From NCBI GenBank assembly GCA_951406725.2, contig OX597818.1:111166001-111230000 (forward strand): a stretch of 64,000 bases of DNA, written 5' to 3'. Each line of letters begins with the position of its first letter. Position 1 is the first letter of the stretch. A program made the position numbers and the translations under genes. Source of the stretch: Octopus vulgaris (Eukaryota). The notes under the pieces were generated by a model that worked only from the letters and a program-made list of their open reading frames with translations, was not told the origin of the DNA and searched no databases. Positions 1 through 62,666 of the stretch are shown here, one piece after another.

Positions 1-1370
1 CTTTAACTGATAACCATTTACAGATGCCCAATTTTTTCATATATACAACATGATGGCGACTGTGAATATAGTTTAGCTCCAAGTTGGCTCTGATAGATCA
101 AACCCTTGAGCAGCCCAAATTTTTTTTTCAGTTCAAGATTGTAAAAAAAAACACAAAAACAAACAGGTTAATCATGGGTAGAATGTCATTTTACAAGTTT
201 TACTTGGAGGCTGACGCCAGTGTTGTCTCACTGCCACCTGTGCTGGTGGCAAGTAAAAAGCACCATACAAGCATTGAGCCTCATGGAGGCAGTGACAGAT
301 GACCAAAAGTCTTGGTAATATACTGTGCTTGTGTTAACTTGTCAAGCCAAGTGAGACCATAGTCATGGCTGATGCCAGTGTCAGGTCAATGCCACCTGTG
401 CCGGTGACACATAAAAAGTACCCATACACTCTCAGAGTGGTTGATGTTAGGAAGAGCATCCAATCATAGAAACCTTGCTAAATCAGATTGGAACCTGGTG
501 CAGACCCCCTGGCTTACCAGTTTTCAGTTAAACCATCCAACCCATGCCAGCATGGAAAGCAGACATTAAATGATGATGATGATGATGATGAAGGCTAATT
601 TGGAACTAAACAGTTATACTTCTTGCCAACTAAATGCCAGAGTCTTAGTTACTTTGGCTAGTATCTATCAAGCTAGTTGTCACTCAGTTCTATTATCACC
701 TAGCTGGCTGTCATCTGATTGCCACTGCCATGTGTACATATATTTTGGTTAGGCTTGAAATAGGGATATTTAATTCTAACACAAAGTTAATTTCAGTATT
801 AGTTTATCTTCTTTCACTTGGTTCTTTCTTGCATATATCCCTATATTTCAATGAAGCAAAGTATTATTTATCCCAGGCAAAAAACAATGGGTCAGGTACT
901 TGTGATATTAATGTTTTTCTCAGTTAACTAAACATGAATTACCTAAGATTAGAAGTGCCCTTCTACAGATCATTACCAAAGTGTATGAAACAGTATTGAT
1001 TGTGTTGATGGTTGATTCAGTCTACATCTTCTGTCTGAGAAGACCTGTCAAACCAAGTGAGATCATAGTTGTGACTGATGCCAGTGTTTTGTAACTGGTA
1101 CCCATGCCAGTGGAATGTAAAAAGCACCCACTACACTCTTGGAGTGGTTGGCATTAGTAAGGATATCCAGTCATAGAAAACATGCCAAATTAGACTGGAA
1201 CCTGGTGCAGCTCCCCAGATTACCAGTTTTCAGTCAAATACCAACTCATACCAACATGGGAAACAGACATTAAATGATGATGATCATCATCATGATCATC
1301 CAAGAATAAAATAAGAAAACGATTACTTTATAATTTTCATAGCATTAATAATATGTTTAATCAAACATAC

Positions 1371-1476
1371 GATAAAATTCCAATCTGCTTTCTTCAGAAC
1401 ATATTCTGCTTCACCATTTGTATAATGATATCTTTCTCGTAACACATAAAACAGATCAAGATGTGATTCTGGTTCA
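1371..1476 (-). CDS. Multi-UBA protein exon, UBA-like repeat 3
   Basis: tttttcttctag acceptor, phase 2; EPESHLDLFYVLRERYHYTNGEAEYVLKKADWNFI then a gtatgt donor at the homologous phase-0 position; read-through to a stop at 1323 is an alternative. Confidence 0.75.
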
Positions 1477-2351
1477 CTAGAAGAAAAACATATACATATA
1501 AAAATGTGTATAATATAATATATTACATTACCTAATATATATATAAACATACTAAGTTACTTTATCCTTGTCAGTTAAAAGGATTCTTTAACAAAAAATC
1601 ACTTTAACCTGTTTAGTACCAACAAATGTGAGACTGTCCCTAACCCTACAACCAAAATTTAATGCTATTTCATGTCCCAATGACCAGCTTAACAAGAATA
1701 AAGATATTTTCCTGAATTTTTCAAGAATTTCAAAATTAACTGTAGCAAAGGATGAATATTTCAACACAAAAATGGTAACAAAAGCATGAAACTTACAACT
1801 CTACTGACTCATGGGACTACATGACTGCTAAAAATATGTACAGGATTGTCTTAATAAGTTGTCTCCTATCAGATAAATGACCTCATTTGACATTACATTC
1901 AATGTGAAACTTCACAACATACATACATTGAAGGTTCGTGGCTTAGTGATTAGGGCACTCAGCAAACAATTGTAAAGTTGTGAGTTCAATTTCTGGCAGC
2001 ACATTGCATCCTTGAGCAAAACACTATATTTTGAGGTGCTCTGTTCCATTCAGCTAGCAAATATGATCTGTACTTGTAATTCAAAGAGCCAGCCTTGTTA
2101 CATTCTATGTCAAGCTGAATCTCCCTGAGAACTAAAGTTAAGTGTGCATGTGTCTGCGGAGTACTCAGCTATTTGTGTTAATTTCATGAGCAGGCTGTTT
2201 CATTGATTGAATCAACTGGAAGACTCATTGTTATAATTGACGGAGTGCCAGACAGATATGAATCAATTTAGTATAATATTTATAATACAGTATAATAACT
2301 TATAATGTATTGAAACGAAATAAGTGAGACAGAAATGTGTATTTTACTTAC

Positions 2352-2485
2352 GGTCCAGTATCTTCATAGTATCTGCATACAACTTGGTCATCAACAATAT
2401 CAATATACTGAGAGGGATATCTTTTCATCTGCTCAGCTGCATTAGAAACCTCCATATTATCTAATTCAGCAAGGTTTTGAGCAAC
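2352..2485 (-). CDS. Multi-UBA protein exon (helix 3 of repeat 2 plus linker)
   Basis: ttgaag acceptor, gtaagt donor, 134 nt, phase 0 to 2; VAQNLAELDNMEVSNAAEQMKRYPSQYIDIVDDQVVCRYYEDTG(P). Confidence 0.75.
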
Positions 2486-3466
2486 CTTCAATACACAGAA
2501 ATGAAAATAGATAAGATATAAAATTTATGTAACTATAATAGTAATCTAGTATAATATATAACTATAATCTAGTACAGGTGCATAAACACACCTGTGCCAG
2601 AGACACATAAAAAGCATCCAACACACTCTAAGTGATTGGCATTAGGAAGGGCATCGAGCCATAGAAACCAAACCACAACAAACAATTGGAGTCTGGACAG
2701 TTCCCAGCTGGCCAGATTCATGTCAAACCATCCAATCCATGCCAGCATGGAAAATGGAAATGATGATGATGACGATGATAAAGACAAGATCTAAATAATG
2801 GTCATTACATATTTTTCCTTTATTGGGGTAAATTTGGCTTACAACTGTTTCCTGTAGTCATTATAGGTTCGTTACTGATAGGTTTGTTCAACTGATCAAT
2901 GATCAGTTGAGAAAAGTTGAATGACTTTAAAAATTAATGCTACTTTCTGTCAGAGCCATTTATGACATGCATGAGGGGTGGAGAGAAGAGAGGGAGGAAG
3001 TGAAAGAGGGATAAGAGGAAAGGGGAAGACAAGTGATGATTTGGAAGAGAAGGACTAAGGTGAAGAGAAGGAAAGGAAAGAAGAGAAGAAGGAATACAAA
3101 GAGTAGGGGAGAGGCGGATTTCAATAGAAGTGGGATAAGATAGCTGAAATTGAGGAAAGGACAGTCACAAAACATAAAGTGTTTGTAGTTGAGTCATCAT
3201 ATAAGAACATACTTGCATTGTTTTTAGGTTAGATATTCTCCAAATACTGTTACATTTCAGGATAGTCGTCTTATTTATTATTATTATTTTATTTTTGCCA
3301 AATAAACACACAAACTATATATATATATATTTTCTTTACTTGTTTATTATTGTTATTTTATTATTTTTATTATTTTGATGCCTGTACATTGTCCAGAAAT
3401 CTTTTGTTGCACATCTATGGCCTCTTTAATAAATGAAAATAGATAAGACATAAAATTTATGTAACT

Positions 3467-3761
3467 AATTGCAGCATGGAAGATGTTTGTAAGCCATTTA
3501 AGAAACACACAAAAGCTGTTCAATTCACTTCAACATTTGAGTTTAATTTGTCAAAATATTTTCGTCGCTTTAAGACCGCGACCTGTTCACTGACAAAAAA
3601 GCGACGAAAATATTTTGACAAATTAAACTTAAATGTTGAAGTGAATCGAACAGCTTTTGTGTGTTTCTTAAATGGCTTACAAACACCTTCCATGCTGCAA
3701 TTGCTTCCGTTTCAGCACACGATCTCAGATCAAATCACTTGCTATGCAAGTACATCTCCGT
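3467..3761 (-). mobile_element. Penelope-type pLTR-like insertion with a partial inverted duplication
   Basis: ~105-bp inverted arms (3467-3571, 3598-3702), 13-14-bp TSD aatttatgtaact(a) at 3454 and 3762, embedded hammerhead variant. Confidence 0.6.
3544..3597 (-). ncRNA. Minimal type I hammerhead-like ribozyme with G3-C8 core variant
   Basis: Minus strand: TTTGTCA-GTGAACA-G-GTCGC(ggtcttaaa)GCGAC-GAAA-A(ta)T-TT^-TGACAAA; 7-bp stem I, 5-bp stem II, palindromic AATATT stem III. Confidence 0.6.
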
Positions 3762-5549
3762 AATTTATGTAACTATAATAGTAAAAAAAAAATAATCATA
3801 ATAAATAAAATGACCATCCCAAAGTATAGCAATATCTGTTTCAACACATGATTTTACATCAGGAATCTTGCAAACTGAATTGATATTCTCTAAATGTTGA
3901 GATGAAATCTGATATGGGTGATCTACACACATGGTCAACTTAAATCTTGAATATTTGGTCATTTGTACTATCATGCATAATGAGGGAATTGTATTAGCAA
4001 ATGAATGAAATATCAGCAGTAACCATATTGTGAGGGGGAGGCTGAGAAAGCTTTGGTGAGCTTGGATATACATTAAAGACAGAGGGAGAAATGTGAGGTG
4101 AAAATAAAGATAAAATCAAGTTAAGTTATTTAAAGCCAAATAAAATTGGAGGTCAGATATAATTTCAAATTAAAACTGAATTAAAGAAATTTTAAAATTT
4201 AAACCATTAAAGCAATTATGGATAAAAAAAATAAAATTTAAATTTATAAAATTAACATTAAAACACAGAACTAAAAGAATTTTACAAAATAAAAGGTAAT
4301 ACTAAAACAATAACAATAATAATAAATGTTTCTACTATAGGCACAAGGCCTGAAATTTGTGGGGAGGGGACTAGTCGATTACATCGATCCCAATATTCAA
4401 CTGGTACTTGATTTATGAACACCAAAAGGATCAAAGGTAAAGTCGACCTCAGCAGAATTTGAACTCAGAACCAACAACAACAACAAAGTAAATCAATAAA
4501 ATAAAATAAAAATTTAAGAAATTTAAAAGGTTGTAAAATTTAAGGAAATTAAAAAAAACACATACCCAAACACATAAAAAATTAGGTAACTTACATTTAA
4601 CCTTTAGGCATTATACCCATCCCAACCAGTGTCTCTCGCTTTAGTATTAAAGTTATCTAGGGAACCTACTGAAGGATTTATTATAGGAAAGCTTACAGCG
4701 TATCACTACTTCTTGCCTATGATTAATAAGGTTACTCTCAGAGATATGTAATTATTACTCAAGGAGGGATACTCAGCTAGCTACGCATCAAGTCAAGGAT
4801 ACTTTAATTATATGAAAGCTACATGAATCTATCTGGGCTCATTCATAGCCAAAAACCTAACTCAGTTGTATAAAGTATAAATGCCAAACTGTACAGCAGT
4901 TACAACAAATGCAATATTTGCAATGCAAAAGTCTTATCTATTATGTAATGCAGCAACTGCATTAATAAGCAAAATGACCTTATTCTTAATTGTAAACATA
5001 AGTTATGCCACACATTCTTAAGGTACAAATGATAGTGCCCTCCACAATAATTCCCTGTGAATTTATAACACATTTTTAACTATCTTTTAACATATTTCCA
5101 TGACTTTGTGGTCTCTTTATATTTTCCTCTTTGCATATTGGGGTGAGCATGCATATATAAATACACCCTCTGTGTACACATATATACTTATGTTGATACT
5201 ACAGGTGTGGAGTCAGTGTATGTGTGTTTGTATGGGTGCATGACTGTGTAAATCTACTGTGAGGTTAGAAACAACCAACTTTGCCAGTGCCTACTCTACA
5301 TCATTATCTTTACCTATCCTTACCTTATATTCCTAACAACCATTATTTCCCCTTAAAGACGACTCTCTATGCTTATCTGCCTCTCTTCTCTTTCCTAACA
5401 ACTCCACCTGATTCCCATCACTCCTAAATATTCGACCTCTTCCTTTTTCCTTGACAATTTCATTTCTTCCAACATTTTTTTTTTTAATTCTATGTACATG
5501 TGTGTGCACGGGTGCACCAATGTATTTGTTTGCTACTGACCTAATAAAG

Positions 5550-6990
5550 TGGCCCCCACTATAATATCTATAACAACTTTCTCTTTCCTTAAAGTCAATA
5601 ACTATCTACTCTATATGAGGAAAAATTTCATATATACTTTTACCCAGTTAGGCCTCAAAATTACTGTAACCACTAATCTCTCTGAAGTTGATTTCTTAGA
5701 TAATTCCCTAGAGTTAAACTTGTTCTCTAATAAGGTCTATCATAAAGTAACTGAGAAACTCATGTATATCCATAGACAGTCCTGTCACCCCACTTAGCAT
5801 TTCAAAACTTTACAGCCAACATCAATAACAGGGTGTTTAATTTCTCCTTTTCTAAGGAAATATTTGTAAAACAACCCATAATATAATATCCTGGCTAACA
5901 ATCGCTTCAAAGATAAGATGCCTTACAACCAATTAAAAATATGAAACATAAAATACACTCAGGAAAATAATATGGTTCTCCCCACACACCCACAAACTTT
6001 CTCTTTGAATGTTATGACTAATGTAGGTAAAAAATTCCTTACTTTAATAGAAAGGCATTTCCTAGTAAACAATAAATACAAGAAAATTAAATTTTTAATA
6101 GACATTCAGAGAAAATTTCATTCACATGCTTCCCAAGTATGAAAAACATATCACTTGCAGGTCACACCAAGAATTCACTCCAAGTTCTCTTGAGACTCTG
6201 AAGCTTGCCTACTCAATCACACATGTTTGACCAACTCAGTGGTTTATGAAGCCAAAGTCACTGTAGTGCTCCAAAGTAAGGAATTCCAAAAGAAAAATTA
6301 CTATTTTTTTTTACTTGCTTCAATCATCTGACTTTGGCCATGCTGGAGCACTGCCTTGAAGAATTTTTAGTCAAATGAATTGACTCCAGGAATTATTTTT
6401 TCAAACCCGGCACTTATTCTATTGGTCCTTTTTTTTTTGCCAATCTACTAAATGACTTGAATATAAACACACCAACATTGGTTGTCAAGTGGTGGACAAG
6501 CACAAACACACACACACATACACGCATATATATATACGATGGGCTTCTTTCAGTTTTCATCTATCAAATCTACTCATAAGGCTTTGGTTGGCCCGAGGCT
6601 ATAGTAGAAGACACTTGCTCAAGGTGCAATGCAGTGTGAGTGAACCTGGAACCAAGTAGTTGGGAAGCAAATTTTGTAGCACACAACCATGTTGGTTTAG
6701 GTAAAACAAATTTCAAAAAAAGATACAAAAGCCAGTGGTTTCCTTTTCAGCATATATGTAAGAATAAAGCTACAAAGTTAACTAGTCATATATGGGAACT
6801 GAAGGTCAACACACCACACATAATCAAGTGGAACATGGTGGTGTGATCAATGCTATATATAAATGGATCAAAGAGATGCAGGCTTTGTGTAGCTGAAAAT
6901 CTCATATTCTTTTTAGATCCAACAACTCCATGAACCTAGTAAATTCCAACTCCAACATATTTAGTAACTGTAAACACATGGACAAATTTC
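5550..6990 (+). mobile_element. Degenerate Penelope-like element (RT thumb plus GIY-YIG endonuclease), interrupted by a SINE at about 6305-6690
   Basis: Fragmented frames: LGLKITVTTNLSEVDFLD...YIHRQSCHP; GKTNFKKRY...TKLTSHIWELK...IKW; KRCRLC...; many stops and frameshifts. Confidence 0.75.
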
Positions 6991-7522
6991 TCATTGAACT
7001 GGAAGATTCTACCCTCTTTGGATAAAACATGCAGTCTCACAGACATCAGCTTCCTCCTTATTGACATAGTTTACATATGCTATATTAATTCTGATTCAAA
7101 CACCATCAACATTAATTCTGATTTCAACAGGCAAAGGGGATCCATTAGTCTTGCCAGTGATGTGTGAAACCTCTCCGGTGCTGGTGACATTATAAAACAC
7201 ACCTAGCACACACTGTAAAGAGGTTGTCATAAGCAAGGACATCCAAACCAAAAATTAAAACTTCAAGTGTGATATGGTCCCCTGGATCCACTAGGAGTGG
7301 TGAACCATCCAATCCATGCCAGTTTAAAACAATGTAAATAAAGACCTTGATTTTAGTACTTAATCTGGTACCTATTTTATCAACCCCTATTTATCTGATG
7401 TTCCACAACAAATTGAGTTAGAATCATTTGTGAACAAAAATGCTACAAAGTATTGGTACTGACTTATACCGGATCACATATGCACACACACATACACACA
7501 CACTCACTCACTCACACACAGA

Positions 7523-7575
<53 letters not shown>

Positions 7576-7806
7576 ACAGACTTCCACACAGGTTCCATTT
7601 CTCAAATTTCATTCACAAATCATTGTTCAACTGAAGACCCCTGGTGTAAGCTACTGACCCAAAGTGTGACTGGGTGGAATTGAACCCAGAATACATCTGT
7701 GAAAAGGACTTTTTAACCACACAGTCATACTTTCCATCATTATTTTTCATTATACAATTCACCTCGATTCAGAATATATAATCAGCATGGTAAATATCAA
7801 CAGTAC

Positions 7807-7909
7807 CTGTAAATTCCAATTACATTTATCCAAAAAGAACTTAGCTTTGCCCACATCCAGTCTTGGAAGTTTTCCAATTAAGGCGTCCATTTTCATTTCC
7901 TTGTCATCC
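7807..7909 (-). CDS. Multi-UBA protein exon, UBA-like repeat 2
   Basis: ttacag acceptor, gtactg donor, phase 2 to 0; DDKEMKMDALIGKLPRLDVGKAKFFLDKCNWNLQ (AKFFL and W at the same positions as in p47). Confidence 0.82.
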
Positions 7910-9977
7910 CTGTAATTAATTTTTTTAAAAAATCAAATAACATTATTTGTAGTTTAATTTTTTTCACACAGGAAAATTATACAAACGTTTTCTGAAAAAT
8001 AAACTTTGACACATGAACATTCTATTTCAAGAGAGATTTCTCTTAATATCAAACATAGTATGAAAACCAATAAAAGAAAATTTGTCAGTATTCCAAAATA
8101 TATCTATGTTTAACCTTTTAATATTTAAACCAGCCATATGTGGCCCAAATATTCTACCTGCTTTATGTTCAAACTAGCCAGATCTGGCCTCTCACACCTA
8201 CCTAACAACGTCATTCTAAGACTAAACAATTACATCATTGAAATCTTGAAGCTTTTGAGATAATGCATGACCCATTCAAAACAACAGAGATAAATAAGGA
8301 TTACATTTAACAGTAATCTGAATGGTAAAGTGTTAAACCATAGTTTTTGACTCATTTAGCAAGACTATATCGTTGCTATTATGCAAAATTGCTGTAAATC
8401 CAAAACATTGCTTTTTCAGAAAATGAAAAAATAGTTTCACCATTCCATAGCAAAACTGTTGTACTACACTTTCACAATTTTTGATATATTGGTATCTGAG
8501 GTAGCTGGAGATATGACATTTTGACCAAAAGAACTAGCTACTGCAAACAAAAATAAATATTGAAAAAAAAAAAAAAAACGCATTCGGTCAAATTTGAACA
8601 TATGACAGTTTAACATAATAGCAACAATATGTTCTTTTAAATAAATAGGTATTCTTCAGAATAATAAATTTTAAGCATATGTGGTACGAATAGATGAGGA
8701 CAGCTGTGTGAAAAAGTGTCACACCCTAGCAGTTGAGGGAATCTGTGGAAGAGGTAGACCCAGGAAGACCTAGAATGAGGAGGTCTCACAACCTTCGAAC
8801 ATTGAGCCTCACCAAGGCAATGACTAGTGACCAAGACCTTTGGAAATATGCTGTGTTTGAGAAGACCCGGCAAGTTAAGTGAGACCATAACCCATGGCCT
8901 ATGCCAGCGGTGTAACTAGCCTACTTATGCGTTGCTTGCAAAGACCTATCGAGGCAAGTGAAATCACAATCAAAATCAAATTCACAGACATAGCCAATAA
9001 CAGCACCACCTGACTGACACCCATGCCAGTGGAATGTTAAAAGCACCATCCGAACATGATCGTTGCCAGGGCTGCTGACTGGCTCCTGTGCCGGTGGCAT
9101 ATAAAAAGCACCATTCAAGTGTGATCGTTACCAGCATGGCCTTACTGGCTCCTGTGCAGGTGGCACATAAAAAACACCATTTGAGCGTGGCCGTCACCAG
9201 TACCACCTGACTGGCCCTCGTGCTGGTGGCACGTAAAAGCACCCACTATACTCTCAGAGTGGTTGGAATTAGGAAGAGCTTCCAACCGTAGAAACTCTAC
9301 TAGATCAGATTGGAGCCTGGTGCAGCCATCTGGCTCGCCAGTCCTCAGTCAAACCGTCCAACCCCTGCCAGCATGGAAAGCAGACGTTAAATGATTATGA
9401 TGATGGCATTATGAATCCTACATAACTGTAGAACATACAAGGTTTGAGATTTTATAAGGTTATCCTACAAAAATCTTAGGTCCTTACTTTGATGTGAAGA
9501 CCCAAGGTAACTCGTAAAATTTCTGGAAGTTCATCCTGTTTGCTGAATACAGCAAAAAGTAACTAAATGTTACATTAGAAAATGAGTATATATTTATAAA
9601 GAGAAGAAGAGTTTGTAGCAGAGATTTGAAACTGAACTGCTAGGTAGCCACACTGATATCACAATAAAACCACAGTAGTTTCACATGATTGGTCTATTAA
9701 GCAATCAATCAGCATCAAGGACCGCATGATTCAATCTTCTGGAATCTTCTCCTTATGCCCGTTAAAATGGGTTTTTGGGAGTAATTACAGAACATTGAGG
9801 CAGCCACTGTTGTGTCTCTAGTCTTACCACATCCAGCCAAGGCAAGAATTTTAATTGCCATGAATATAGCACAATTATTTTCAAGTTATGATGGGCCAGT
9901 CACAGATTGCTAAATCAGTAAGTTTGTCATAATCTCCAAGCAGTATGTCTCTCCCAGTATTTAATTATTACTGTTGA

Positions 9978-10882
9978 GATGCAGTTTGGTTTTGTACCAG
10001 GGAAGAGGACCACAAATGCCATCTCCCTAATGAGACAGCTGCAGGAAAAGTATCTGGCCAAAAGTCAGCTGTTGTACTTAGCTTTCATTGACTTGGAGAA
10101 AGCTTTTGACAGAGTTCCTAACTCTGTTATCTGGTGGTCACTAAGGAAGGTAGGAGTAGAGGAGCAGCTTGTTAGGGTTAGAGTTAGAGTCAATCAAGCT
10201 ATGTACAGTGGTACTGTCAGTAAGGAGGAGAATCCACCATGAATAGTGATGAATTTAGCGTACAAGTAGGTGGGTCACCAGGGCTCAGTTCTTAGTCCAC
10301 TCTTATTCAACATAGTCTTCCAGGCCCTAACAGAAAAATTCAAAACTGGATGTCCATGGGAACTACTATACGCTGATGACCTTCCCCTTATTGCAGAATC
10401 TGCAGCAGAACTGGAGAAAAAATTACAGGTACAGGAATGAAACTTGGAATCAAAGAGCCTTAAAGTTACCTTAGCAAAGACCAAAGCTGTTGTTAGCAAC
10501 AGAGCAGATAAAACTCTCTCTTTCCATTAGGTAAATGGCTCTGCTCAATATGTTGGAAAGGAGTGGGAAATAATTCCATTTACTGCACCCAGTGTAAGTT
10601 AGGGACACATAACAGATGCAGTGGAATCACAAGTAGATTAACAGATAGTCACCTTCATATGTGGCAGATATGCAAGGAACAATAAGCACTAAAAGCATAT
10701 AGGACTTAGACTTTCTCAAACGCTCAGGAGGCTATCTTGAGGTAGTAGACAGTTTCTGTTACCTACGTGATCAAATTAGTAATGGTGGAGGAAGCTCTGA
10801 AAGTATTGTTTCTAGAATAAGAATAGGATGGAGGGAGTTCAGAGAGCTACTACCTCTGTTGGCAAGAAAAGGATTCTCTCTC
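9978..10882 (+). mobile_element. RTE-clade LINE reverse transcriptase fragment (pseudogenised)
   Basis: MQFGFVPGKRTTNAI...LAFIDLEKAFDRVP; HQGSVLSPLLF; ELLYADDL; frameshifts. Confidence 0.88.
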
Positions 10883-12140
10883 ATTATGACCTCCATACCT
10901 TGAGGGTACGCCCAGGCACTTTCCACCATTTATCTCTCTCTTCTTTACTCTACCATCCCATCTTATGCTCTGATCCTCATTCCTTGTGAGTATACCTGGC
11001 ACTTTGCCACCACCCGTCTCCTGTGCATTCTCTTGCACACTTGCTGTCTTCCACTCTCTCTGGCTTTCCCTCACTTTTCCCTCTGGTTGGATAACCACAT
11101 ATTCCCTCTACAGCAGTACACGTGTTTCTGCCCTCATTCTTGATCATTCTCTTTCTCTCCTTCTCTTACTCTTCCCTAATCATGTATCTCCTTTACAGCA
11201 GCACACCTACTTTTGTCCTCATTCTTGTTAACTCTCTTTCTCTCTCTCTCTCTGATTGGGTAACCATGTACCTCATCTACAGCAAGACACCCTTCTTCTT
11301 AAAAACTTTTAGCATCTGATATAAGATCACTTCCTCCAATTACTCCTTCCCTCCCAAAAATTCTTTGTCTTGCAAGTTACTTGGAGATCCTGCTAGTGTT
11401 GGTGTTCTGTAAAAAGTATCCAGTCCACACTGTAAAGTGGTTGGCATTTGGAAGGGATCCAGCTGTAAAAACAATGCCACAAAGCTGACCTTGCCTGTGG
11501 CAGTGCCATATAAAAAGCACACAGTCAACTATGTGGGGTGGTTGATGTTAGAAAGGGCATCCAGCCTTAAAAACCAGCCAAAACACACACAGAAGTTTAG
11601 TGTAGTTTTCTGCCAGGCCAGCTCCTATTAAACCATCCAACCCATTCAAGGTAGGCGTTAAACAATGATGATGCTGATGATGTTAGTATTTGTAAAAAAA
11701 CCAACACAGTTAAAACACTATGTGCAATAAAATCTGCTTAATGTTTACAGGTGTTGTTCAGTTATTTCTTCACGCAACCCAAGGAATATATTTTCATTTA
11801 ATCAGTCATTTACCTCATACCAGCCAACAATAACAATAACAGCCCACAAGTCCATTTAATACTGCCATAATATAATTCCTAGCTTCTTCAAAATACTGCT
11901 TTATATCACTGCCTTCATTTTCCCTTCTCCACATAGCTAACTACTGAAATATTTGATCCCACTATATTTTTTCATCCCCACCCCCGCTTCACTATGAAAT
12001 TCAGTTTGTTTACTTGCTTCATTGTGTGTTTTGGTATATCACAATCCATTGAAGCTATGGGGACCTCCAGTTTTTCTTTTCATGAGTGATTACCAGTCCA
12101 TTCTAATATCTCACTGAAACATTCAAAAAATAATACTCAC

Positions 12141-12271
12141 CCTTCATCTCCTTCTTTTAAAAGGATTATTTCATTATCACCTTCAACAGAAACGCACTCC
12201 CCAGGCATAAGAATGTGTTCCTCAGACTCTTTAGATGTATGCTTGACTATTCTCAAGTGTCTGGACAAAGT
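12141..12271 (-). CDS. Multi-UBA protein linker exon
   Basis: ttttgtag acceptor, gtgagt donor, 131 nt, phase 0 to 2, open frame TLSRHLRIVKHTSKESEEHILMPGECVSVEGDNEIILLKEGDE(G); phases fit both neighbours. Confidence 0.65.
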
Positions 12272-12394
12272 CTACAAAACAATATGCATTACACAAGTTA
12301 AACAGAATAATCGAAGAAAATTGATGATTGCCTGCTTCTGCCTACAACAAATGTAAAATGTTCAACGAAAATAATCATTAAGCTAATGATGTCA

Positions 12395-12935
12395 TGTATA
12401 AAACACTTATGCTGGTTCGATGAATAAAGCATCCATACTGATGCCATGTTAAAAGCATCCATGCTAGTGCCATGTAAAAAGCACTGGTGCTGGTGCCATA
12501 CAAAAAGCACTGGTGATGGTGCCACATAAAAAGCACTGGTGATGGTGTCACATAAAAAGCACTGGTGATGGTGCCACATGAAAAGTACTGGTGCTGGCTC
12601 CATGTAAAAAGCACTGGTGTGCCACGTAAAAATCACTGGTGCTCATTTTATATAAAAAGCACTGGTGATGGTTCTGCATATAAAGTACTCATACTGCCAC
12701 ATAAAAAGCACCCAGACCACTGTAAAGTGGTTGGCATTAAGAAGAGCATCCAGCCACAGAAACCATGCCAAAACAGATAATTGGAGCCTGGTACAGCATT
12801 CTGGCTGGTCAGCTCCTCTCAGACCATCCAACCCATGCCAGCATGGAAAATAGATGCTTAATGATAATGACAATGGTGATGACGACGACAATGATGATAA
12901 CAATGGTGATGACGACGACAATGATGATGACAATG
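12395..12935 (+). repeat. RTE-type 3' tail element with a 26-bp tandem array
   Basis: ~12 copies of gccacataaaaagcactggtgatggt followed by the family 3' end ccaacccatgccagcatggaaa and a (GAT/GAC)n tail. Confidence 0.8.
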
Positions 12936-14819
12936 AAGCTAATGATTTTGTTCTCTTCACTATGGGTTTAACTTCCATTTATTACAATTTCTTGACTCAC
13001 TGGTCCTCATGCCCGTGGCACGTAAAAGCACCCACTACACTCTCAGAGTGGTTTGCGTTAGGAAGGGCATCCAGCTGAAGAAACTGCCAGATCAGATTGG
13101 AGCCTGGTGCAGCCATCTGGCTCGCCAGTCCTCAGTCAAATCGTCCAACCCATGCCAGCATGGAAAGCGGATGTTAAACAATGATGATGATTATGATGAA
13201 TTAAAACTATATTATGCTAGTATCCACTTTACTATTTGCTTTCCATTTAGCAGGAGTCCCTAGCCATTTTCTCCTCAATCATTATTTTAAGTTGTCATGC
13301 CAACCAGTATCTATTCACTATAACTCTATATTCAGTCATCTTAGCTCTAGAAAACTAAGAATACTTTGCTAAAGAGGTATGGTAATGCTGAAACCTGTCC
13401 ATAGTTTCAATAGTGTTTACCTCTCATTCCATTCTAATCTTAATTCATTAAATTCTGGAATTACTTATCCTGCCTTTCTTAACCAAATTTAACCATCAAA
13501 CCCATTGTTCTCATTAAGTTTGTAATTTCAGTTGATTAAAATCTCTTCTCTTACTGCTTGAACCTTACTATTCATATAATTTAGTTTGCCATGAAGAAGA
13601 GAAAATATAAAGCATTTCTAAGGTTTTTCAGTAGATGCCTCATATATCGGATATCTCCTCTTCATGACAGCTTAATTCATATCACTTTGTGCATGCCTTA
13701 GTGGTTAGGATGTTTGACTCATGAACATAAGATTGAGATTTCAATTCCTAGACCAGGCGACATGTTGCCTTCTTGAGCCAAACATTTCATTTCACGTTGC
13801 TCGAGTCCATTCAGTTGACAAAAATGAGTAATACTACAACAGACCAGCATCCCGTCCAGGTGGTGAATATATACACCATTGAAACCAGGAAACTGGCCCT
13901 CAGAAGCCTGGCATGGCTCAAGAAGGAAACATTTATTTTTTGAGAATTTGCTACATTTCATATGAGTATATATGCTGGGAGGGACACCATTTTTCATTAT
14001 ACAACTGTAATATACTATCAACTATATATGCTAGTATATAATGGTGTCCATACGAATAATTAAGGTAAATGAGTTAGCTGCCAGGAATGTGTTTATTATG
14101 TAAAAACTGATACCTCCAATTAAGTTATACTGCTATATTTGGTGGCTAGTTAAGCAATGTATTTGTGGATGGTTTGAGTTTGAGTGGTTGATGCCAGTGC
14201 CATATGACTGCCTCTTGTGCCAGTGGAATGTAAAAAGCACCATGTAAACATGGTCGATGCCAGTAATGCCTGACTGGCTCCTGTGCTGGTGGCAAGTAAA
14301 AAGCACCCACTACACTATTGGAGTGGTTGGCATTAGGGAGAGCATGCAGATGTAGAAACCTTGCTAGATCAGACTGTAGCCTGGTGCAGCCTCCTAGCTT
14401 GCCAGTCCTCAGTCAAACCATCTAACCTATGCCAGCATGGAAAGCAGATGTTAAACGATGATGATGATGTGGTGCAGAAGAAAAATCAAAAACCCTTGAA
14501 ATATGCAAATACACCATTACCTGTCTTTCTATCTTTGATTGCATTACTTACATGGTCATATTCGTATACTTTTACTGGTTTCAGTCAAACAAATTGGCCC
14601 CAGAACTTGTTGTTTGTAAGCCTAGTACTTATTCTATTGGTCTCTTTTGTCAAACTGCTAAGTTACAGGGACATAAACACACCAACATCAGTTGTCAGGC
14701 AATGGTGGGGGAACAAACACAGACACACAAACATATATGTATATATATGTGTGCATGTGTATATATATATATATGTATATGTGTGTATATATATACACAC
14801 ACACACACACACACATACA

Positions 14820-15378
14820 TACAGGGTGCATAAGTTATTTGAGGACGTACCTTGTTCAGGTCATTGCTGCTGCATTTTTTGCTAACTCTGTATAATCTTT
14901 GTTTCAGAAAATAATAATGGCAGACCCTCAGCTTACTTTACAAATGAAGAGGCATGCTGTTATTGCGGTTATAAAGGCTGAGCATAGCGATTTAGAAACA
15001 TCTTGATTTTTAAAAGTTGCCAGATATTTTATCTACAGAGTTTGTAAGGAGTTAGAGATTGAAGATGGAAATATATCAGCAGTATCAAAGCATAAAAAGC
15101 ATTCTAAATGCTCTGAAATCATCAAAACACTTGAATTTATCCAGCAAGTTTAACGAACCATTGATTACAATCTCAGACAGTCCATCAGGTCAATTGCAAA
15201 AGATCTCCATGTGTCAGAAGGAACGGTCAGAAATGTTGTCTACGAAGACATCAGATATAAGTCTTATATGACAAGGAAAGGTCAACTTTTCAGAAAAAAC
15301 AAACGAAAATCACTACATCAGATCTAAAAGGTTCTTAAACAAACTGAAAACTCCGACAGAAGAATATTTGATTTGGTT
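14820..15378 (+). mobile_element. Tc1/mariner-superfamily transposon 5' fragment (defective transposase)
   Basis: Starts TACAGGGTG; frame MKRHAVIAVIKAEHSDLE...SIRSIAKDLHVSEGTVRNVVYEDIRYKSY...RSKRFLNKLK with stops (HTH region). Confidence 0.75.
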
Positions 15379-15405
15379 AGAAAAGTAGTAAGATTGAGGT
15401 GGGAA

Positions 15406-16133
15406 TCATCATCATCATCATCGTTTAGCGTCCGTTTTCCGCGCTAGCACAGGTTGGATGGTTTGACCGGGGTCTGGGAAGCCAGGGGCTGCACCAGGCT
15501 CCAGTCTGATCTGGCAGTGTTTCTACAGATGGATGCCCTTCCTAACGCCAACCACTCCGAGAGTGTAGTGGGTGCTTTTTATGTGCCACCTGCACAGGTG
15601 CCAGGGGAATCTGGCATTGGCCACGATCGGTTGGTGCTTTTAACGTGCCACCGGCACAGAAGCCAGCCAAGGCGGCGCTGGCAACGGCCACGTTTGGATG
15701 GTGCTTTTTATGTGCCACCGACACAGAAGCCAGTCGAGGCGGTGCTGGCATCGGCCACGTTTGGATGGTGCTTTTCATGTGCCACCGGCACAGAAGCCAG
15801 TCAAGGCGGCGCTGCCAATGGCCACATCCAGATGGTGCTTTTTATGTAGAATACGAATAGCCTGGGCAAAGTTCAGAAAGCTCCTACCCCTACTGGCGAC
15901 AAAGGGTCTCTCGCTCAAAGTGAAAGGTAGATTGTATGACGCATGTGTTGCGAACTGCCATGCTTCACGGTAGTGAAACATGGGCTGTGACTGCAGAGGA
16001 CATGCGTAGACTTGAAAGGAATGAAGCTAGCATGATCCGCTGGATGTGTAATGTCAGTGTGCGCGCACGACAGAGGGTAAGCACCTTGAGAGAAATGCTG
16101 GACATAAGAAGCATCAGATGTGGTGTGCAAGAG
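15406..16133. mobile_element. RTE LINE copy with a 5' inversion
   Basis: Minus-strand 3' tail and repeat array (15406-15847) fused directly to a plus-strand ORF2 piece RIRIAWAKFRKLLPLL...GVQE (15848-16133). Confidence 0.8.
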
Positions 16134-17619
16134 AATGATTATAATAATGTTTATTATGGTTATGAAGGGGATGAAGAAGACAACGAAGAACTAAAGAGGG
16201 TGCTTATGGTGATGACAACAATAACAATGCTGTACATGTTTTCATGAAGCAATCCAGCAATGCTACAACAACTAATATATTGGTTTCAAACTTCTGGCAC
16301 AAGGCCAGTAATTTCGAGGGAGTGGGTAAATCAATTACATCAACCCCAGTACTCCACTGGTACTTATTTTATCAACACTGAAAGGATGAAAGGCAAAGTT
16401 GACCTTCGCTGGAATTTGAACTCAGAACATAAAGACAGATGAAATGCTGCTGAGCATTTTGCTTGGCATGCTAACAATTCTGGCAGCTCACCACCTTAAC
16501 ATCAACAAATATATTATTAATAATTGAGGCAAAGTGGCTGAGTACCTTTCAAGAGCTGGGCCTCACAGAGGTGAAGTGGCTGAGTTCCTTTCAAGTGTTG
16601 GGCCTCACAGAAGCAATGACCAAGACCTTTGACATTATGTCATGCTTGAGAAGAAGATCCATCAAGCCAATCAAAATTGCAGTTGTGGCAGATACCAATG
16701 TCACGCAAATTGGTATCGATGCCAGTAGCACGTAAAAGAACCCTGGTGTCATGCAAATGGCACGTAAAAGCACCCATTACACTCTCGGGGTGGTTGGCGT
16801 TAGGAAGGGCATCCAGCCATAGAAAACCATGCCAAATCAGACTGGGGTCTGGTGCAGCTTTCCAGCTTACCAGACCCTGCAAGCCATCCAACCCATGCCA
16901 ATGTAGACAACAGATGTTAAATGATGATGATGATGATGACAGTAACAACGATTATGTATAATTTCAGAATATGGTCACCTATTTAACTGTCAGCTTCATT
17001 AATAATTTCTTAGCACAAAAATACTGTTATTCAGACAGAGGATAGTTAATTCAATCAATCACGGCATTTCATTTATAAATCTCAAATGAATGAAAGGTGA
17101 AGATGGAATTTGATCTCAACAAAAGAAAATGTAAATAAATAGAAACTGAATGGTTCTTTGTTGCCTGAATTACACTTTCTACCTTCAGCTAATGCATCTG
17201 CTATCAACCAACATTTCTGGTATTGAACAGTGTGCCTGGCATCGACCATCATTTCTACTATCAACAAGATTTCCTTTTAGCAATCAACACTTCTAACACC
17301 AACCAACATTTTTTCTGTTACCTACCATTTCTGCCATCAACTGTGCCCACTGAATCACCAATTTCAGTTTCATCATTCTGAGAAGAATAAAACAAATACA
17401 ACTAATACATGTATATATATGCAATCAGTGTCATTGACTCAGTTCATCCAAGCCTGCTCAATAAATAATCTTCATTACAATGTTAGCTATTGCTTATTGT
17501 CTATTAAGAATTTCATGCCTTAATTCTTTTGTAAGTTTATCAGTGTTTTTCTATAATAACATAAAAATGTAATACATATAACTAATATAAGAAATATAAC
17601 TAAATAAAAAGCTACCTAC

Positions 17620-17676
17620 CAAGTCTTTTGCATTCTCATCCTGAACAAGTTCTTTATTGAATTGTTCGGTAGCAGC
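17620..17676 (-). CDS. Multi-UBA protein exon (helix 3 of UBA repeat 1)
   Basis: ttttccatag acceptor, gtaggt donor, 57 nt, phase 0 to 0; AATEQFNKELVQDENAKDL aligns with NSFL1C LAMESFYKD (A, E, F, K identical). Confidence 0.78.
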
Positions 17677-19764
17677 CTATGGAAAAATAAAATAAAATTA
17701 TTATACCAACATTTATTTTTCTTGTATTAGTTACACAGGTACCAGACCTTTTATCTAGAATCCAGAAATCCAGTTATTTTTTAAACTGGCTGGCTTTGAA
17801 TTTCAGGGGCTGTAGTAGTTTGCCACATGGTCACTTTATTTTGGTTTCTCTAGCTTTCAAATGGCTTAATAGAGATCAAAAAGACCCTGCTTTATAAATG
17901 TATTAATTTGTATATGTTATACAATTTTGTTCTTTACTTTTTGTTGTTTATTTTATATTTTCAGTATATAGTTAGCCTGCATCCAGAAATTCGGAAAATT
18001 TATAAATCTGGATCATCTCCGGTCCCAAGACTGCCAGATAAGAGGCATCTGTATATGTTTATAGTATCACTTACATTCATGTATCAGGTTATATAATCTA
18101 TCTTTTACTTGTTTCATTAATCAGACTGTGGCCATGCTGGGGTACTACCTTGAACAATTTTAATCAACCCCAGAACTTTTCTTTTAAACTTGGTGCTTAT
18201 CTTATTAGTCTCTTTTGCCGAACCATTAAGTTATGGGGACATAAACATGCTGACATTGGTTTACAAGTGGGGGGGGGGGACAAACACAGATACAAAGACA
18301 CACACACACGTGTGTGCCTCCCCCCTTACACACACACACATACACACATACAGAGTATGCAAGAAAGGATCTGGAAACCCAGAAGATGACTTTCAGTCAT
18401 GGATTGTGCATAACAAATAAAGGATAGAATTGGTATTACACTAATTGTACCATTTACAATTATTTCAATAAAAAATGGTTGACAAATCATATACTTTTGA
18501 AAACATAGAAGATAATGATATTCTTTTCTATTCTAGGCACAAGGCCCGAAGTTTTTGGGGAGGGTGCCAGTTGATTAGATTGACCCTAGTATGCAACTGG
18601 TGCTTAATTTATCGACCCTGAAAGGATAAAAGGCAAAGTCGACCTTGGTGGAATTTGAACTCAGAACATAAAGACAGATAAAATACTGCTAAGCATTTCG
18701 CCTAGCTCGCCACCTTATAGGAGATAATGATATTGTCATATTGATTATATAAAATGTATTATATAATGGTGAAGACACGTGGCTCAGTGGTTAGAGTATC
18801 TGGCTTACAATCAAAAGATCTAAGTTTAATTCTCAGCAGCATGATGTGTCATTCAGCAAGACACTTTATGTTGCTCCACTTCACTCAGCTGTCAGAAATA
18901 AGTAGTACCTGTATTTCAAAGGGCCAGATTTGAGTACTCAACCAGTTGCACATTAATTCTATGAGCAGACTGTCATGTTGATCGGATCAACTGGCACACT
19001 CATCATCACAACTGACAGAGTGCCAGTATTGTACAATAACTGACTGATAGTAAGCACCCTTCATTCGGTGGGTGATATGCAAAGCACCCTTCAATCATTG
19101 GATGATATGCTGTGCCTGTGAAAACCTGTCAAACCAAGTGAAATCATATGCATGGCTGATGTCAGTGTCAGGCCGGTGGCATGTAAAATACACTCACTAC
19201 ACTCTTGGAGTGGTTGGCATTAGGAAGGGCATCCAACCATAGAAACCTTGCCAAATCAGATTGGAAACTGGTGCAGCCCACCAGCTTACCAGTTTTCAGT
19301 CAAACCGTCTAACACATGCCACCAGGAAAGCAGATGTTAAATGACGATGATGATGATAGTCATAACTTTTGTGAGCAATTAGACATAGTTACAAAATGAA
19401 TGAGTTTACTTATATATGGGCACATGAGAGATGTTTAATTAATTAAGATAGCAGGGCTTATTGTTAGAAATGTCAATGAAGAAAAAGTGGATTGCAATGT
19501 AATTGTATTTCTTAACAAGAACATTTTACAAGTTCCTTTCATTAATCAATCCATAAATTCAGACATTTGTCTAGTTGAGACAGTGAAACATTTCAAAATG
19601 TATAATAAATTCATCCACTCTGATCTCTATTTGACAAACTGTTAGACTACATGACATAAAAGTGATTCAGCATAAACACACATATATACATAAATCAAAA
19701 GCAAGCTTGTTAGCCTAACAAGTAAGACTGCAGTAGTAGACAAATAAAATGAAAAGTGACTTAC

Positions 19765-19885
19765 TTTAATATCATAATCGTTTTTCTCCAAATAATATTT
19801 AGCTCGACCATAATCAATCCAATTGTCTATTGAGAACCGTTTAACAACCAGAGCTTTGTTAAACCCCATCTTGTTCCAGTGTTTG
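19765..19885 (-). CDS. Multi-UBA protein, exon carrying UBA-like repeat 1 (probable start ATG at 19869)
   Basis: ccacag acceptor, gtaagt donor; (KHWNK)MGFNKALVVKRFSIDNWIDYGRAKYYLEKNDYDIK; 35 aa from Met to a phase-0 intron, the same length as NSFL1C exon 1, with 10/35 identities and no gaps. Confidence 0.8.
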
Positions 19886-20184: not shown

Positions 20185-20690
20185 GCTCCCTATCAGGGCT
20201 GGTACAAACAGTATCTCCCTCAAGCTTGGCTTTTTCAGAAATAAATGCATCGACCTAATCATTAAGCAGGCTCTGGCTCAGGTTAATATCCCCTCAGTTC
20301 TGGAGCTAGCAGGATTATCCAGAAGTGATGGGAAGAGACCAAATGGTCTTCTACTTTGTCCCTATGTAAGAGGTAGGTGTCTCATCTGGGATATCACAGT
20401 CTGTGGATCTTTTGCTCCCTCTCACATCCTGGATGATGTGGTAAATGGGAGGGTCACTGTTTCTGTAGGTGAACAGAACAAAATCTTTAAGTATCAGAAC
20501 TTGTCAGTGAATCATTTCTTCCAGCCTGTGGAGTTTGAGATGTTTGGAAAGCTCTTGTCATCATTGGAGGCTCACCTTACTGAGGTGCCAGGTAATGCCC
20601 ATGAGGGTGTTTGGCTATTCCAATGTCTTAACCTTGTCATCACCTGTTGTAATGCTGTATGTTGACTTGCTTCAGTAAGTTCCACTGAAC
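20185..20690 (+). mobile_element. CRE-like non-LTR retrotransposon C-terminal (restriction-like endonuclease) fragment
   Basis: DLIIKQALAQVNIPSVLE..GLSRSDGKRPNG...GRCLIWDITV...EQNKIFKY...FQPVEFEMFG; the clade assignment is from recalled motif similarity. Confidence 0.7.
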
Positions 20691-21583
20691 CTTGTGATGT
20701 GCAACCAACTGAAGCACTCAGTGTTGAATTCATGTTTTTCTTTCTTCCTCTTTTTCTCCTTTTTCTTTATTTCATCACTCATGCTTCTGTTTTTCTTTGG
20801 TTTGGAATTAGTAAGCAAGTGCTTACCAACCACTCCTGCATTTATTGTATACAGTGCTCAAGTGCACTAGAATTCATCAGATAACTTACACTGATGCCAC
20901 TTTCTCTCATAGAAATAATCTTTTTACTTTTACAGCAATGTTCTTTCATGCAGACATTGGAAAATATTTTCTAAAAAACAAATGATAAACACAATAACAT
21001 TGATTTTCATATGAAGCCTAATTTATCTTCAGAAACATTCCACTGGTTCTGTTTCCAATAATATAACACACCTCAATGTTAACAAAAATTAGATGGAACA
21101 TGTATGGAAAATCACTTTTATTTTACATGCAGATTAATTTTGCATTTCTACAGATGTGTGTTCTCCCATACCGATTTTGTTGCCTTGTAACTTCCAGAAA
21201 AATGAATATTTTTAATGAAATTTTCTACAAATATGCTTCAGATGGTGTAGATTCTGATTATATTGTAATATGTGGTGGAAACTTTTCTGGGGTGGGATGA
21301 GGAATTTCAGAAAATTCAAACGAGATGGCTTTCTTTACTCATAACTTTCAGAAAAATAGATAACATTTTATGAAATTTTCTATAAATACCTTCAAGAATG
21401 TGTAGATTACGATTATATTGGAATTTAATGGAGAGAAAAAAGTTTGGTGGGTTTGTACACATGCATACTGACACAGGTCACATACATCTACAAAATGAGA
21501 CTTGAAATTTCAAAAAATTTGTAATGTGTGTCAGCGTGTGTGTGTGTTCACACAGTTTTACTTTTCACATCAAATTGATATAA

Positions 21584-21935: not shown

Positions 21936-22254
21936 GAGGTTTCCAAGCACCCCCAACTTTTCAACCCAATGTGGTGAATTGTTTTGGCTTTTTTATAATT
22001 TTGTAAAACTAATATAATGAATAATAAAATCAGGATTTGAACTCAGAATGTAAAGGTAATCATTGTAATTTACACAATCTGAAAAGTATTTGTAGAAAAT
22101 TTCATGAAAAAAACACACACTTTTCTGAAAGATATGAGGAAACAATGCCAACAGCTGTAAATTTTCCGAAACCCCTTTTCCTCCCTACAGAACAAATGTA
22201 CCACCATGCATTTTGGGAGGAAAAAGCCCAGCGTCTACTAACTCCCTCCAAGTA

Positions 22255-23093
22255 CTAATCTCAAAAAGTCTTCTTGTGAATGTGACCTGGGCATTATTGT
22301 CGACAGCAATTTGCATTGGACAAAACACATTGCTAAAATTGCCAAGAAGGCTGAGAGTGTCTTGACATCACTCACCAAGTCCTTTGTGAGCCACTCTCTG
22401 GCTATCTATCTACGGCTTTATATAGCTATGGTGCGACCTCACTTGGAATTTGCATCAGCAGTCTGGAACCCCTATCTTGCCCAGGATATTAATCGTTTGG
22501 AAGCCATTCAGCAGCGTGCAACCAAGAGAATACCCTCCATCAGGCATTTGCCATATTCTGAACGCCTTACTTCCCTGGGCATGGATACATTGAAACTCCG
22601 ACATCTGGCAGCTGACTTGGCAGACACCCATAAAATTATTAACCATTTTACAAACAATAACTCTGAGCACCTTTTCAAACCCCATCTGTCTAACACCTGT
22701 GGACATGTTTATAAAGTCAGAAAACAGCACAGCTCCTATGACTTTCGGAAATATTTTTTCATGCTAAGAGTTGCTGAAGCATGGAACAAACTGCTGGCAT
22801 CAGCTGTTAGTTGTTGGAGCACTGCATCTTTCAAAACTTCCATGTTTCCTGAGATTCGCCAACACTAGACCTGATTTTCTTCCCTCCATACACATGCAAG
22901 CATGTATCTGACTCATACACTGTTCGCTTTCCAGGCCTTTGTACATAACAGCAAATTCTTTATACGCATTTTTAACAATTTGTGGTGCACCTGAGCACTG
23001 TATACAATAATTTCATTATTATTATTATTATAACTATTATCATTATTATTATTATTATCCATCATTATTATTATTATTATTATCATTATTATT
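22255..23093 (+). mobile_element. 5'-truncated CR1 LINE 3' end with (ATT)n tail
   Basis: ORF 22311-22868 is clearly homologous to the C-terminus of the 33810-35276 ORF; shared 3' motif gtgcacctgagcactgta. Confidence 0.92.
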
Positions 23094-25964: not shown

Positions 25965-26110
25965 CTCCAATGTTGACTTCAAACGTCGTCTTCGTGAAAA
26001 GAGAAATGATTTGACTCTGAAGAATTTAGCAGACGATAACCTTTTTATCGTCTGCTCGCAAATGGTGGGAGGAAAATGGAATACTTCGGTTATTTCCGGA
26101 TAATTTCGGT
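25965..26110 (-). promoter_or_regulatory. Candidate non-coding first exon/promoter of the multi-UBA gene
   Basis: Unique CpG-containing sequence ending in a GAG|gtgaag donor at 25964; 12-bp inverted motif AGCAGACGATAA-ccttt-TTATCGTCTGCT at 26028-26056. Confidence 0.4.
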
Positions 26111-31723: not shown

Positions 31724-31990
31724 CTTCCACTCAACTGAAGCTGACGGAATCAATGGCGGAACTGTACTTCGCTGACACCGGTTAATGGCAGTTACAACGA
31801 TAAAATTTCGCTTTCAGTTTTAAATTTCGTTCCCCGCACCTTGTTTATGTTGATATAATACTTCGTTTACCTAAGTCGGGTTCAATTTGTTAATTCTTAA
31901 GAGAAAATATTCAGTTAGTATGAAAAAATTGGCTTTGATTTTAATTTGAACAATAGCAGAGTTTTTTTTTTTAGCAGACGACAATACCAG
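31724..31990 (-). promoter_or_regulatory. Second candidate non-coding first exon/promoter of the multi-UBA gene
   Basis: Locally CpG-rich unique sequence with a strong GAAG|gtaaga donor at 31723; no ATG in the adjacent ~135 nt; AGCAGACGA motif at about 31973. Confidence 0.45.
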
Positions 31991-46529: not shown

Positions 46530-46634
46530 ATGGATCCCGGTCAGGAATCTTTGGTGGAGCAATTTATTAAAGTCACTGAAGTAGACAGAGATCGAGCCAA
46601 ATTCTTCCTTGAATCTTCATCATGGGATTTAGAA
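46530..46634 (+). CDS. NSFL1C: NSFL1 cofactor p47, coding exon 1 (UBA-like domain)
   Basis: ATG at 46530 reads MDPGQESLVEQFIKVTEVDRDRAKFFLESSSWDLE, then a phase-0 GTATTT donor; matches the p47 N-terminal UBA pattern (RAxFFLESxxWDL). Confidence 0.9.
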
Positions 46635-58158: not shown

Positions 58159-58301
58159 CTTGCCATGGAGAGTTTTTACAAAGATGACCAAGAACCTGAT
58201 ATGTACGATATGTTTCCATCTGCACCTATACCTGAAGCTGCGAAACCACCTTCTGGACCGTCATTTGATCCTACTCCAGTGACCCAAGAAGGAAACCCTC
58301 G
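58159..58301 (+). CDS. NSFL1C: NSFL1C/p47 coding exon 2 (end of UBA plus linker)
   Basis: ttgcag acceptor; LAMESFYKDDQEPDMYDMFPSAPIPEAAKPPSGPSFDPTPVTQEGNP+CG; gttagt donor; phase 0 to 2; LAxxSFY completes the p47 UBA helix 3. Confidence 0.88.
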
Positions 58302-60477: not shown

Positions 60478-60567
60478 ATTTGCCTCCATTGCTGATATGA
60501 GACAAGGAGAAACTGCAGATAGTGATGAGGAAGGACAAGCCTTCTATGCCGGTGGATCTGAACACAG
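60478..60567 (+). CDS. NSFL1C: NSFL1C/p47 coding exon 3
   Basis: ttggcag acceptor, phase 2 to 2; (R)FASIADMRQGETADSDEEGQAFYAGGSEH contains the diagnostic p47 motif EEGQxFYAGGSE. Confidence 0.92.
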
Positions 60568-60664
60568 GTATTTTAACAGTAATTCTGTTAGTATGCAAAT
60601 GTAATGAGTATTTCCATTCAAATCTTCTCCTAAACACTTCAGTCAGTTTTTCTAGAGATCTGTG

Positions 60665-61077: not shown

Positions 61078-61132
<55 letters not shown>

Positions 61133-62565: not shown

Positions 62566-62666
62566 GTTTTGAACATGTGGAAGAATGGCTTCAATGTTGA
62601 TAATGGACCATTAAGGGAATACACTGATGAAAGGAATAGAGAGTTTCTGGAATCCATCACCCGAAG
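62566..62666 (+). CDS. NSFL1C: NSFL1C/p47 SEP-domain exon
   Basis: aatag acceptor; [33 protein letters not shown]+AG; gtaaat donor; SEP signature WxNGFxVDxGPLRxY...FLESI. Confidence 0.92.

Follow-up and report, generated by a model that had tools for sequence, protein, structure and literature searches.

A window of 64,000 nucleotides (nt) from the 2.8-Gb genome of Octopus vulgaris (OX597818.1:111,166,001-111,230,000) carries NSFL1C, the gene of the p97 adaptor p47, on its plus strand and the 5' part of a much larger gene on its minus strand. The minus-strand gene encodes four UBA-like units followed by an array of 37 helical modules. We hold with about even confidence that it is a likely inverted copy of the p47 gene whose product now likely acts as a p97-independent scaffold: the front units would dock on ubiquitylated proteins, and the variable rod would engage other partners. 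A first-pass annotation, made from the letters of the window, had described six exons and overlooked the array, which lies off-window and makes up most of the protein.

The six exons stood up in every detail. They have AG and GT ends and the expected phases, the quoted peptides are in place, and the joined frame runs for 217 amino acids (aa) without a stop. Coding exon 1 has phase 2-0 and a 5' exon must therefore lie upstream. A query with exon 5 (one match from two candidates) retrieved the Octopus sinensis protein XP_036358878.1 (LOC115212235; 1,935 aa, uncharacterized). Hence the gene, thought to be unannotated, is already in RefSeq. When this protein was mapped on the 380 kb to the left of the window, 94 coding exons emerged; they span 321,955 bp and share a single frame of 2,064 aa, and 88 of them follow exon 6, reaching OX597818.1 position 110,863,930 or so. 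The model has 94 AG and 93 GT ends, and apart from one 129-aa insert it is 98.0% identical to the O. sinensis protein; the two are the same gene, with four more modules in O. vulgaris. Past exon 2, all 91 internal exons strictly alternate between phases 0-2 and 2-0. The protein comprises the four UBA-like units (residues 1-382), the 37 two-exon modules, a faint fifth unit, a SEP-like exon and an Ala-rich last exon with a tail of 47.5% Ala. No signal or membrane stretch was found in the model (maximum hydropathy 1.24, within the Ala tail), so the protein is likely cytosolic.

Contigs from 4 of 24 listed runs (four studies) were aligned to window positions 1001-14600. The runs, none of which is recorded as RNA, were presumed to be RNA and are read as RNA-like because their contigs skip introns. 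Splicing across the predicted junctions was seen for exons 3, 4, 5 and 6, which a single contig covered at consecutive record positions in all four runs, with no mismatch in three runs and two in the fourth; exons 1 and 2, both in the RefSeq model, fit by length alone (199 nt ahead of exon 3 versus 178 nt). Three runs gave contigs of 1,630 nt, and the remaining run one of 2,072 nt. The shorter ones stop at spliced position 1608, precisely 29 nt past the start of the model's first repeated stretch (1579), and the longer one stops at the next-but-one repeated stretch. Such ends are expected of a unitig with k=31, the value we assume, if both exon copies are transcribed. They support exons 7-23 by length and suggest that the extra O. 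vulgaris modules are transcribed and are a real difference from O. sinensis. In exon 6, one run differs from the window at two places and the O. sinensis protein differs by two residues; the other three exons covered show no difference.

The front of the protein is UBA-like, as first described, but with four units, perhaps five, instead of three. The whole O. sinensis protein passed the Pfam cut-offs for UBA_4 (33.8 bits; cut-off 21.8) and UBA_8 (29.3; cut-off 26). Among single exons, unit 2 matched UBA_4 under the cut-off (E 0.0017), and units 1 and 3 and both linkers gave nothing useful. We also predicted the structure of 673 aa, with an overall predicted local distance difference test (pLDDT) score of 52. 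A Foldseek search with this model returned nothing at E<=0.001. Its residues 98-143, which cover unit 2 at a local pLDDT of 53-62, aligned with 6q00 over 45 residues (root-mean-square deviation 1.7) at a middling Z of 6.7, and most of their structural matches are UBA or UBA-like; units 1, 3 and 4 each show three helices at low confidence. The Trp32/Ala37 core is retained in most units and species. An exon at window position -275,181 (negative positions lie left of the window) resembled the unit profile over 15 positions at E 0.054 and scored negatively against p47; it is not counted among the units.

In the array, 37 short exons of 28-37 nt take turns without exception with 37 long ones of 56-65 nt, and they form modules of about 32 aa of two alternating types. 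Together the modules make up a charged helical repeat region of about 1,190 aa (pLDDT about 50-75), for which Pfam, the Atlas clusters and solved folds held no match. The 1,116 repeat codons contain neither stop nor frameshift, and columns of Tyr, Phe, Leu and Ala are conserved. Between O. sinensis and O. bimaculoides the repeats are 75% and the UBA units 82-86% identical, and p47 is 99.7% identical. Modules have duplicated recently, and their exons have diverged more than their introns. Across 17 disjoint paralogous exon pairs, exons differed at 22.6% of positions, the intron within 150 nt at 5.5% and the farther intron at 6.7%; exon divergence exceeded that of the far intron in 15 of the 17, and that of the near flanks in 115 of 118 overlapping pairs. 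The comparison of nonsynonymous with synonymous change that had been suggested for other cephalopods was made between paralogous repeat exons and gave omega values of 1.2, 1.1, 3.0 and 0.84 for the four exon classes.

Several points speak against positive selection as the source of the exon excess. The pairs had been selected for alike flanks, a free omega beat omega=1 for the 59-nt class alone (six exons; trees re-optimised, rough), and the divergence of four-fold sites (10 of 49) equalled that of codon position 2 (20.7%). Because of the four-fold sites, homogenisation of introns alone stays a live alternative, and the excess may reflect this or constraint on the flanks. Whichever applies, positive selection or intron homogenisation, something has to keep the exons different.

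The modules also bear some likeness to halves of the UBA units: in both, 'RAK' stands 11 residues before the phase-0 intron, and the phase pair is the same. The kinship is weak, with z 0.3-2.5 over ten sequences of units 1-4, -0.9 for unit 5 and 1.6 for p47, whose anchored window ranked 4th of 342. The modules may be shrunken UBA halves, though this is less likely than not. Eight exons between window positions -118,768 and -151,027 have no counterpart in the O. sinensis protein. Several of them are near-identical copies of distant exons, as with -53,313/-121,156, and elsewhere the same holds for -85,009/-208,132; 1-3 kb of alike intron go with them, which points to non-adjacent duplication or conversion. 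The 23 DNA matches obtained with one module all lie within this gene, and a second copy elsewhere in the genome was discarded.

We searched the protein for the parts with which p47 family members hold p97. According to excerpts of three papers, p47 binds ubiquitin via UBA and p97 via UBX and SHP (PMC5559722, PMC12394548, PMC8181520). The SHP box (aromatic-x-G-x-G-x-x-h) had no match in the 2,064 aa and two in the p47 control, and VIM and VBM patterns were absent from the same model. Pfam found no UBX in the O. sinensis protein, the frame ends in the Ala-rich exon, and tblastn of the p47 UBX over 524 kb matched NSFL1C's own exons alone. Because it lacks SHP, VIM, VBM and UBX, the predicted protein would not be a functional p47-family p97 adaptor, whatever its ancestry. 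The suggestion of a new p97 adaptor, should SEP and UBX exons follow to the left, thus fell with the leftward extension, which shows no SHP or UBX. The likely p47 ancestry and the SEP-like remnant could still be taken to favour binding of p97 through some unrecognised motif; with none of the four patterns present, and p47 itself gripping p97 by UBX and SHP in the excerpt of PMC12394548, we consider this very improbable indeed.

The gene had been proposed to stem from an inverted NSFL1C duplicate whose exon module multiplied. Growth by exon-pair duplication was borne out, and descent from NSFL1C is likely, judging from position, unit 1 and a SEP-like exon. NSFL1C adjoins the new gene in a genome of 2.8 Gb. 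As reported before, the distance between ATG and intron is 105 nt in unit 1 and in NSFL1C exon 1 alike; 10 of the 35 residues are identical, and the next exon shares A/E/F/K. A profile built from the units alone ranked p47 first (21.1 and 15.1 bits), ahead of proteins that we presume from their sequences to be TDP2-like (11.8), UBALD-like (6.2), DCN1-like (3.2) and UBXN7-like (-1.0); unit 1 by itself gave 22.9/21.2 bits with p47 versus 7.4 at best with the others. Towards the 3' end, the boundaries of exon 93 align with those of the NSFL1C SEP exon, so that the two agree in both intron sites and in phase. Its sites differ from those of a second SEP gene in the genome, which lies on another contig, is presumably UBXN11-like and also differs from NSFL1C in its intron sites. 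When all 254 exon pairs between both genes were ranked, the top five comprised the four UBA units against NSFL1C exon 1 and the SEP-like against the SEP exon, the latter in 4th place below UBA pairs alone (z 3.97; 11 of 20,000 shuffles with octopus p47 and 2 of 20,000 with Argonauta p47). A SEP profile from three sequences had its best window at residues 1698-1713 (E 0.0018), and 1 of 4,000 decoys scored higher. On these anchored comparisons, a SEP remnant in the new gene is probable.

Not all evidence favours this origin. Unit 2 ties p47 with the TDP2-like protein, and units 3 and 4 tie it with the UBALD-like one. The phylogeny proposed earlier brought no decision, as the approximately unbiased test rejected none of four origins (39 columns, unit 5 left out). 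The phase-0 UBA intron, offered at first as proof of p47 origin, is not diagnostic: it is common to three of the five UBA_4 genes found in the genome, including the TDP2-like and UBALD-like genes. The one UBA match of a PDB sequence search was Caenorhabditis elegans TDP2 (E 0.12), and PDB searches favour TDP2 weakly. For the SEP-like exon, the exon-pair probability rises to 0.14 after 254-fold correction (octopus p47), and the neighbouring exon was not significant (548 of 5,000). Unanchored tests were blank (local alignment 55 versus a shuffle mean of 55.6; nothing with a two-sequence profile), as were the Pfam SEP search of the new gene and the PDB sequence search for SEP, and a genome-wide SEP search gave three matches, none in the new gene. 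The best Atlas match of the SEP stretch (0.84) was RING/U-box-like and below trust level, and its single-sequence fold reached pLDDT 45.9 and Z 2.9 at best. All these blanks are compatible with a remnant.

These ties, the shared intron, the lack of resolution in the tree, the PDB preference for TDP2 and the different scaffolds in Argonauta (see below) are what one would expect if a different UBA_4 gene (TDP2-like or UBALD-like) or an ancient lost paralogue had supplied the units, with NSFL1C adjacency and SEP likeness due to chance. Chance would then have to account for a unit 1 of the same 105-nt length as in p47, to which it is three times closer in bits, for a SEP-like exon that has both intron sites of NSFL1C and follows the p47 domain order, and for the adjacency in so large a genome, and we regard this origin as decidedly improbable.

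We next asked how widely the gene occurs. Among 1.84 billion representatives there were six matches, solely in Octopus and Argonauta, in line with the lineage restriction first proposed, as far as searched; squid or cuttlefish gave no match in this set, which may reflect divergence or missing proteomes. The O. bimaculoides entry LOC106877687 is partial (80% identity). In Argonauta, GAB1598819, -821, -822 and -823 are four fragments with adjacent gene numbers on one scaffold (25-40% identity), and units 1, 2 and 4 are kept. The database entries carry an automatic name only, are truncated or split, and leave the repeat array and origin undescribed. A query with Argonauta protein found no match in the O. 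vulgaris genome, which is uninformative for exons of 11-21 aa, and literature searches, which covered few subscription journals, found no paper on the gene. In O. sinensis, p47 and the new gene lie on contigs of equal length, and so they do in O. bimaculoides. The Argonauta scaffolds that carry them differ in length; this gives no sign of linkage there and counts against an origin from NSFL1C. One Argonauta protein has about six copies of a 17-aa segment like symmetric exon 2 after unit 1, so that here the gene has multiplied an exon independently.

Under the reading that we favour, NSFL1C would probably have been duplicated in inverted orientation in an octopod ancestor. Its UBA exon pair (x-0, 0-2) would have gained a phase-2 acceptor and become a [2-0][0-2] frame-neutral cassette that could be freely copied or swapped, and the 3' SHP and UBX exons would have been replaced by the Ala-rich last exon, leaving the SEP remnant. 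Units 1 and 2 may still read ubiquitin while units 3 and 4 have drifted, and selection may favour a different sequence per module on a fixed helical frame, as for a binding surface in an arms race; taken together, these two proposals fall somewhat short of an even chance. The protein, likely cytosolic and unable to hand cargo to p97, would shield or redirect it. A large new gene would thus have grown from a highly conserved cell-biology cofactor by copying of a frame-neutral exon pair, and if units 1 and 2 do bind ubiquitin while p97 is not recruited, the protein would represent a derivative of p47 that has been uncoupled in nature. A bolder version, which we think unlikely, makes it an octopod-specific intracellular recognition protein: the UBA exon pair would have shrunk to a two-helix module and been amplified 37-fold, with diversifying selection keeping every module distinct and recombination between near-identical introns shuffling and adding modules, to give a variable rod, driven by pathogens or germline conflict, on a ubiquitin-reading head.

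Phe41 in helix 3 of p47, which we take to be involved in ubiquitin binding (a literature search on this role found no paper), is kept solely in unit 1 of two Octopus species and is missing from units 2-4. One could therefore picture a descendant of p47 in which the UBA-like units have lost ubiquitin binding and form, with the repeats, a structural or self-assembling helical rod, its exon divergence arising from weak constraint and intron-homogenising gene conversion. The omega values near 1 in three of four classes, the four-fold sites as diverged as position 2, the long charged helical stretch of about 1,190 aa and the 47% Ala tail would all suit a rod. Weak constraint is hard to reconcile with an open frame over all 1,116 repeat codons, the conserved Tyr/Phe/Leu/Ala columns and the preservation of the Trp32/Ala37 core across most units and species, and neutral drift cannot yield exon divergence threefold that of introns; we rate the rod as rather unlikely. 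At the other extreme, the UBA units could be the business end of a tandem-UBA polyubiquitin avidity reader or a ubiquitin decoy, as the first-pass annotation had envisaged. Four UBA-like units kept in Octopus, three of them also in Argonauta, and the absence of p97-binding parts fit this, and the p47 UBA binds ubiquitin chains according to an excerpt of PMC5559722. The loss of Phe41 from units 2-4 casts doubt on a pure avidity reader. Moreover, the UBA block is 382 of 2,064 aa, under one fifth, its divergent units are separated by folded linkers of 40-110 aa, and the array would be left unexplained, which makes a reader or decoy improbable.

Features of the new gene and of NSFL1C (positions in the window unless stated otherwise)
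Feature	Position	Strand	Remarks
Coding exon 1	19765..19885	-	ATG at 19869; UBA-like unit 1 helices 1-2; phase 2-0; same start as O. sinensis RefSeq protein
Exon 2	17620..17676	-	unit 1 helix 3; the gene's sole symmetric (0-0) exon
Exon 3	12141..12271	-	linker; phase 0-2; covered by spliced contigs
Exon 4	7807..7909	-	UBA-like unit 2 helices 1-2; phase 2-0; model residues 98-143 match solved UBA domains
Exon 5	2352..2485	-	unit 2 helix 3 and linker; phase 0-2
Exon 6	1371..1476	-	UBA-like unit 3 helices 1-2; phase 2-0
SEP-like exon 93	L035:3698-3786 (piece left of window)	-	89 nt; phase 0-2
Candidate untranslated first exon	31726..31860 (ends approximate)	-	strong donor, CpG-rich zone; predicted from sequence and CpG profile
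Second candidate untranslated first exon	near 25,970-26,100	-	predicted
NSFL1C (p47) exon 1	46530..46634	+	UBA helices 1-2; likely parent module
NSFL1C exon 2	58159..58301	+	phase 0-2; UBA helix 3 and linker
NSFL1C first SEP exon	62566..62666	+	101 nt; phase 0-2; counterpart of SEP-like exon 93

The two genes had been described as a tight head-to-head pair. Their ATGs lie 26.7 kb apart, CpG-rich zones occur separately at 23-27, 30-33 and 44-48 kb, and between the genes are remnants of open reading frames for endonuclease and reverse transcriptase that look, from their translations, like those of long interspersed nuclear elements (33,800-36,600; 37,200-38,300; 20,200-20,700; 22,200-22,900). 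Distance, separate zones and intervening frames rule out a shared bidirectional promoter, and the genes are divergent neighbours. Within NSFL1C, no exon for residues 113-181 (O. sinensis numbering; includes the first SHP box) was found in window positions 60567-62566. A gap of 100 N lies at about 60665-60764, where they are expected, and a database p47 model skips the same part, which is probably an assembly gap. NSFL1C exon 3 (60476-60567; 90 nt, symmetric) is omitted from the annotated isoform X2 in two Octopus species.

Compared with the UBA-SEP-SHP-UBX adaptor p47, the new gene shares first-exon length, the UBA intron, the intron sites of the probable SEP remnant, domain order and a neighbouring locus. 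It differs in carrying four units where p47 has one, in the insertion of 37 modules, in its Ala-rich tail and in the absence of SHP and UBX, and in being 20-25% divergent between two Octopus species versus 0.3% for p47. With the UBA_4 (PF14555) proteins TDP2, UBALD1/2, DCN1, UBXN7 and FAF1 it has in common the three-helix UBA-like fold and, in the TDP2-like and UBALD-like genes, the phase-0 intron; unlike it, these proteins have a single UBA and no array, and the profile scores of those compared lie below p47. In its mode of change it resembles snake-venom gene families and the VERL-type gamete-recognition repeats of abalone, which have tandem exon-duplicated modules, changes in copy number and exons that diverge more than introns. 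Here, too, two close species differ in their number of modules, and the coding sequence is about three times more diverged than flanking introns, a pattern that usually marks conflict in infection or reproduction. Venom and VERL-type proteins are secreted or displayed on the surface, whereas the new protein is free of signal and membrane stretches and likely derives from a cytosolic housekeeping cofactor, so that the same pattern appears in a seemingly cytosolic protein.

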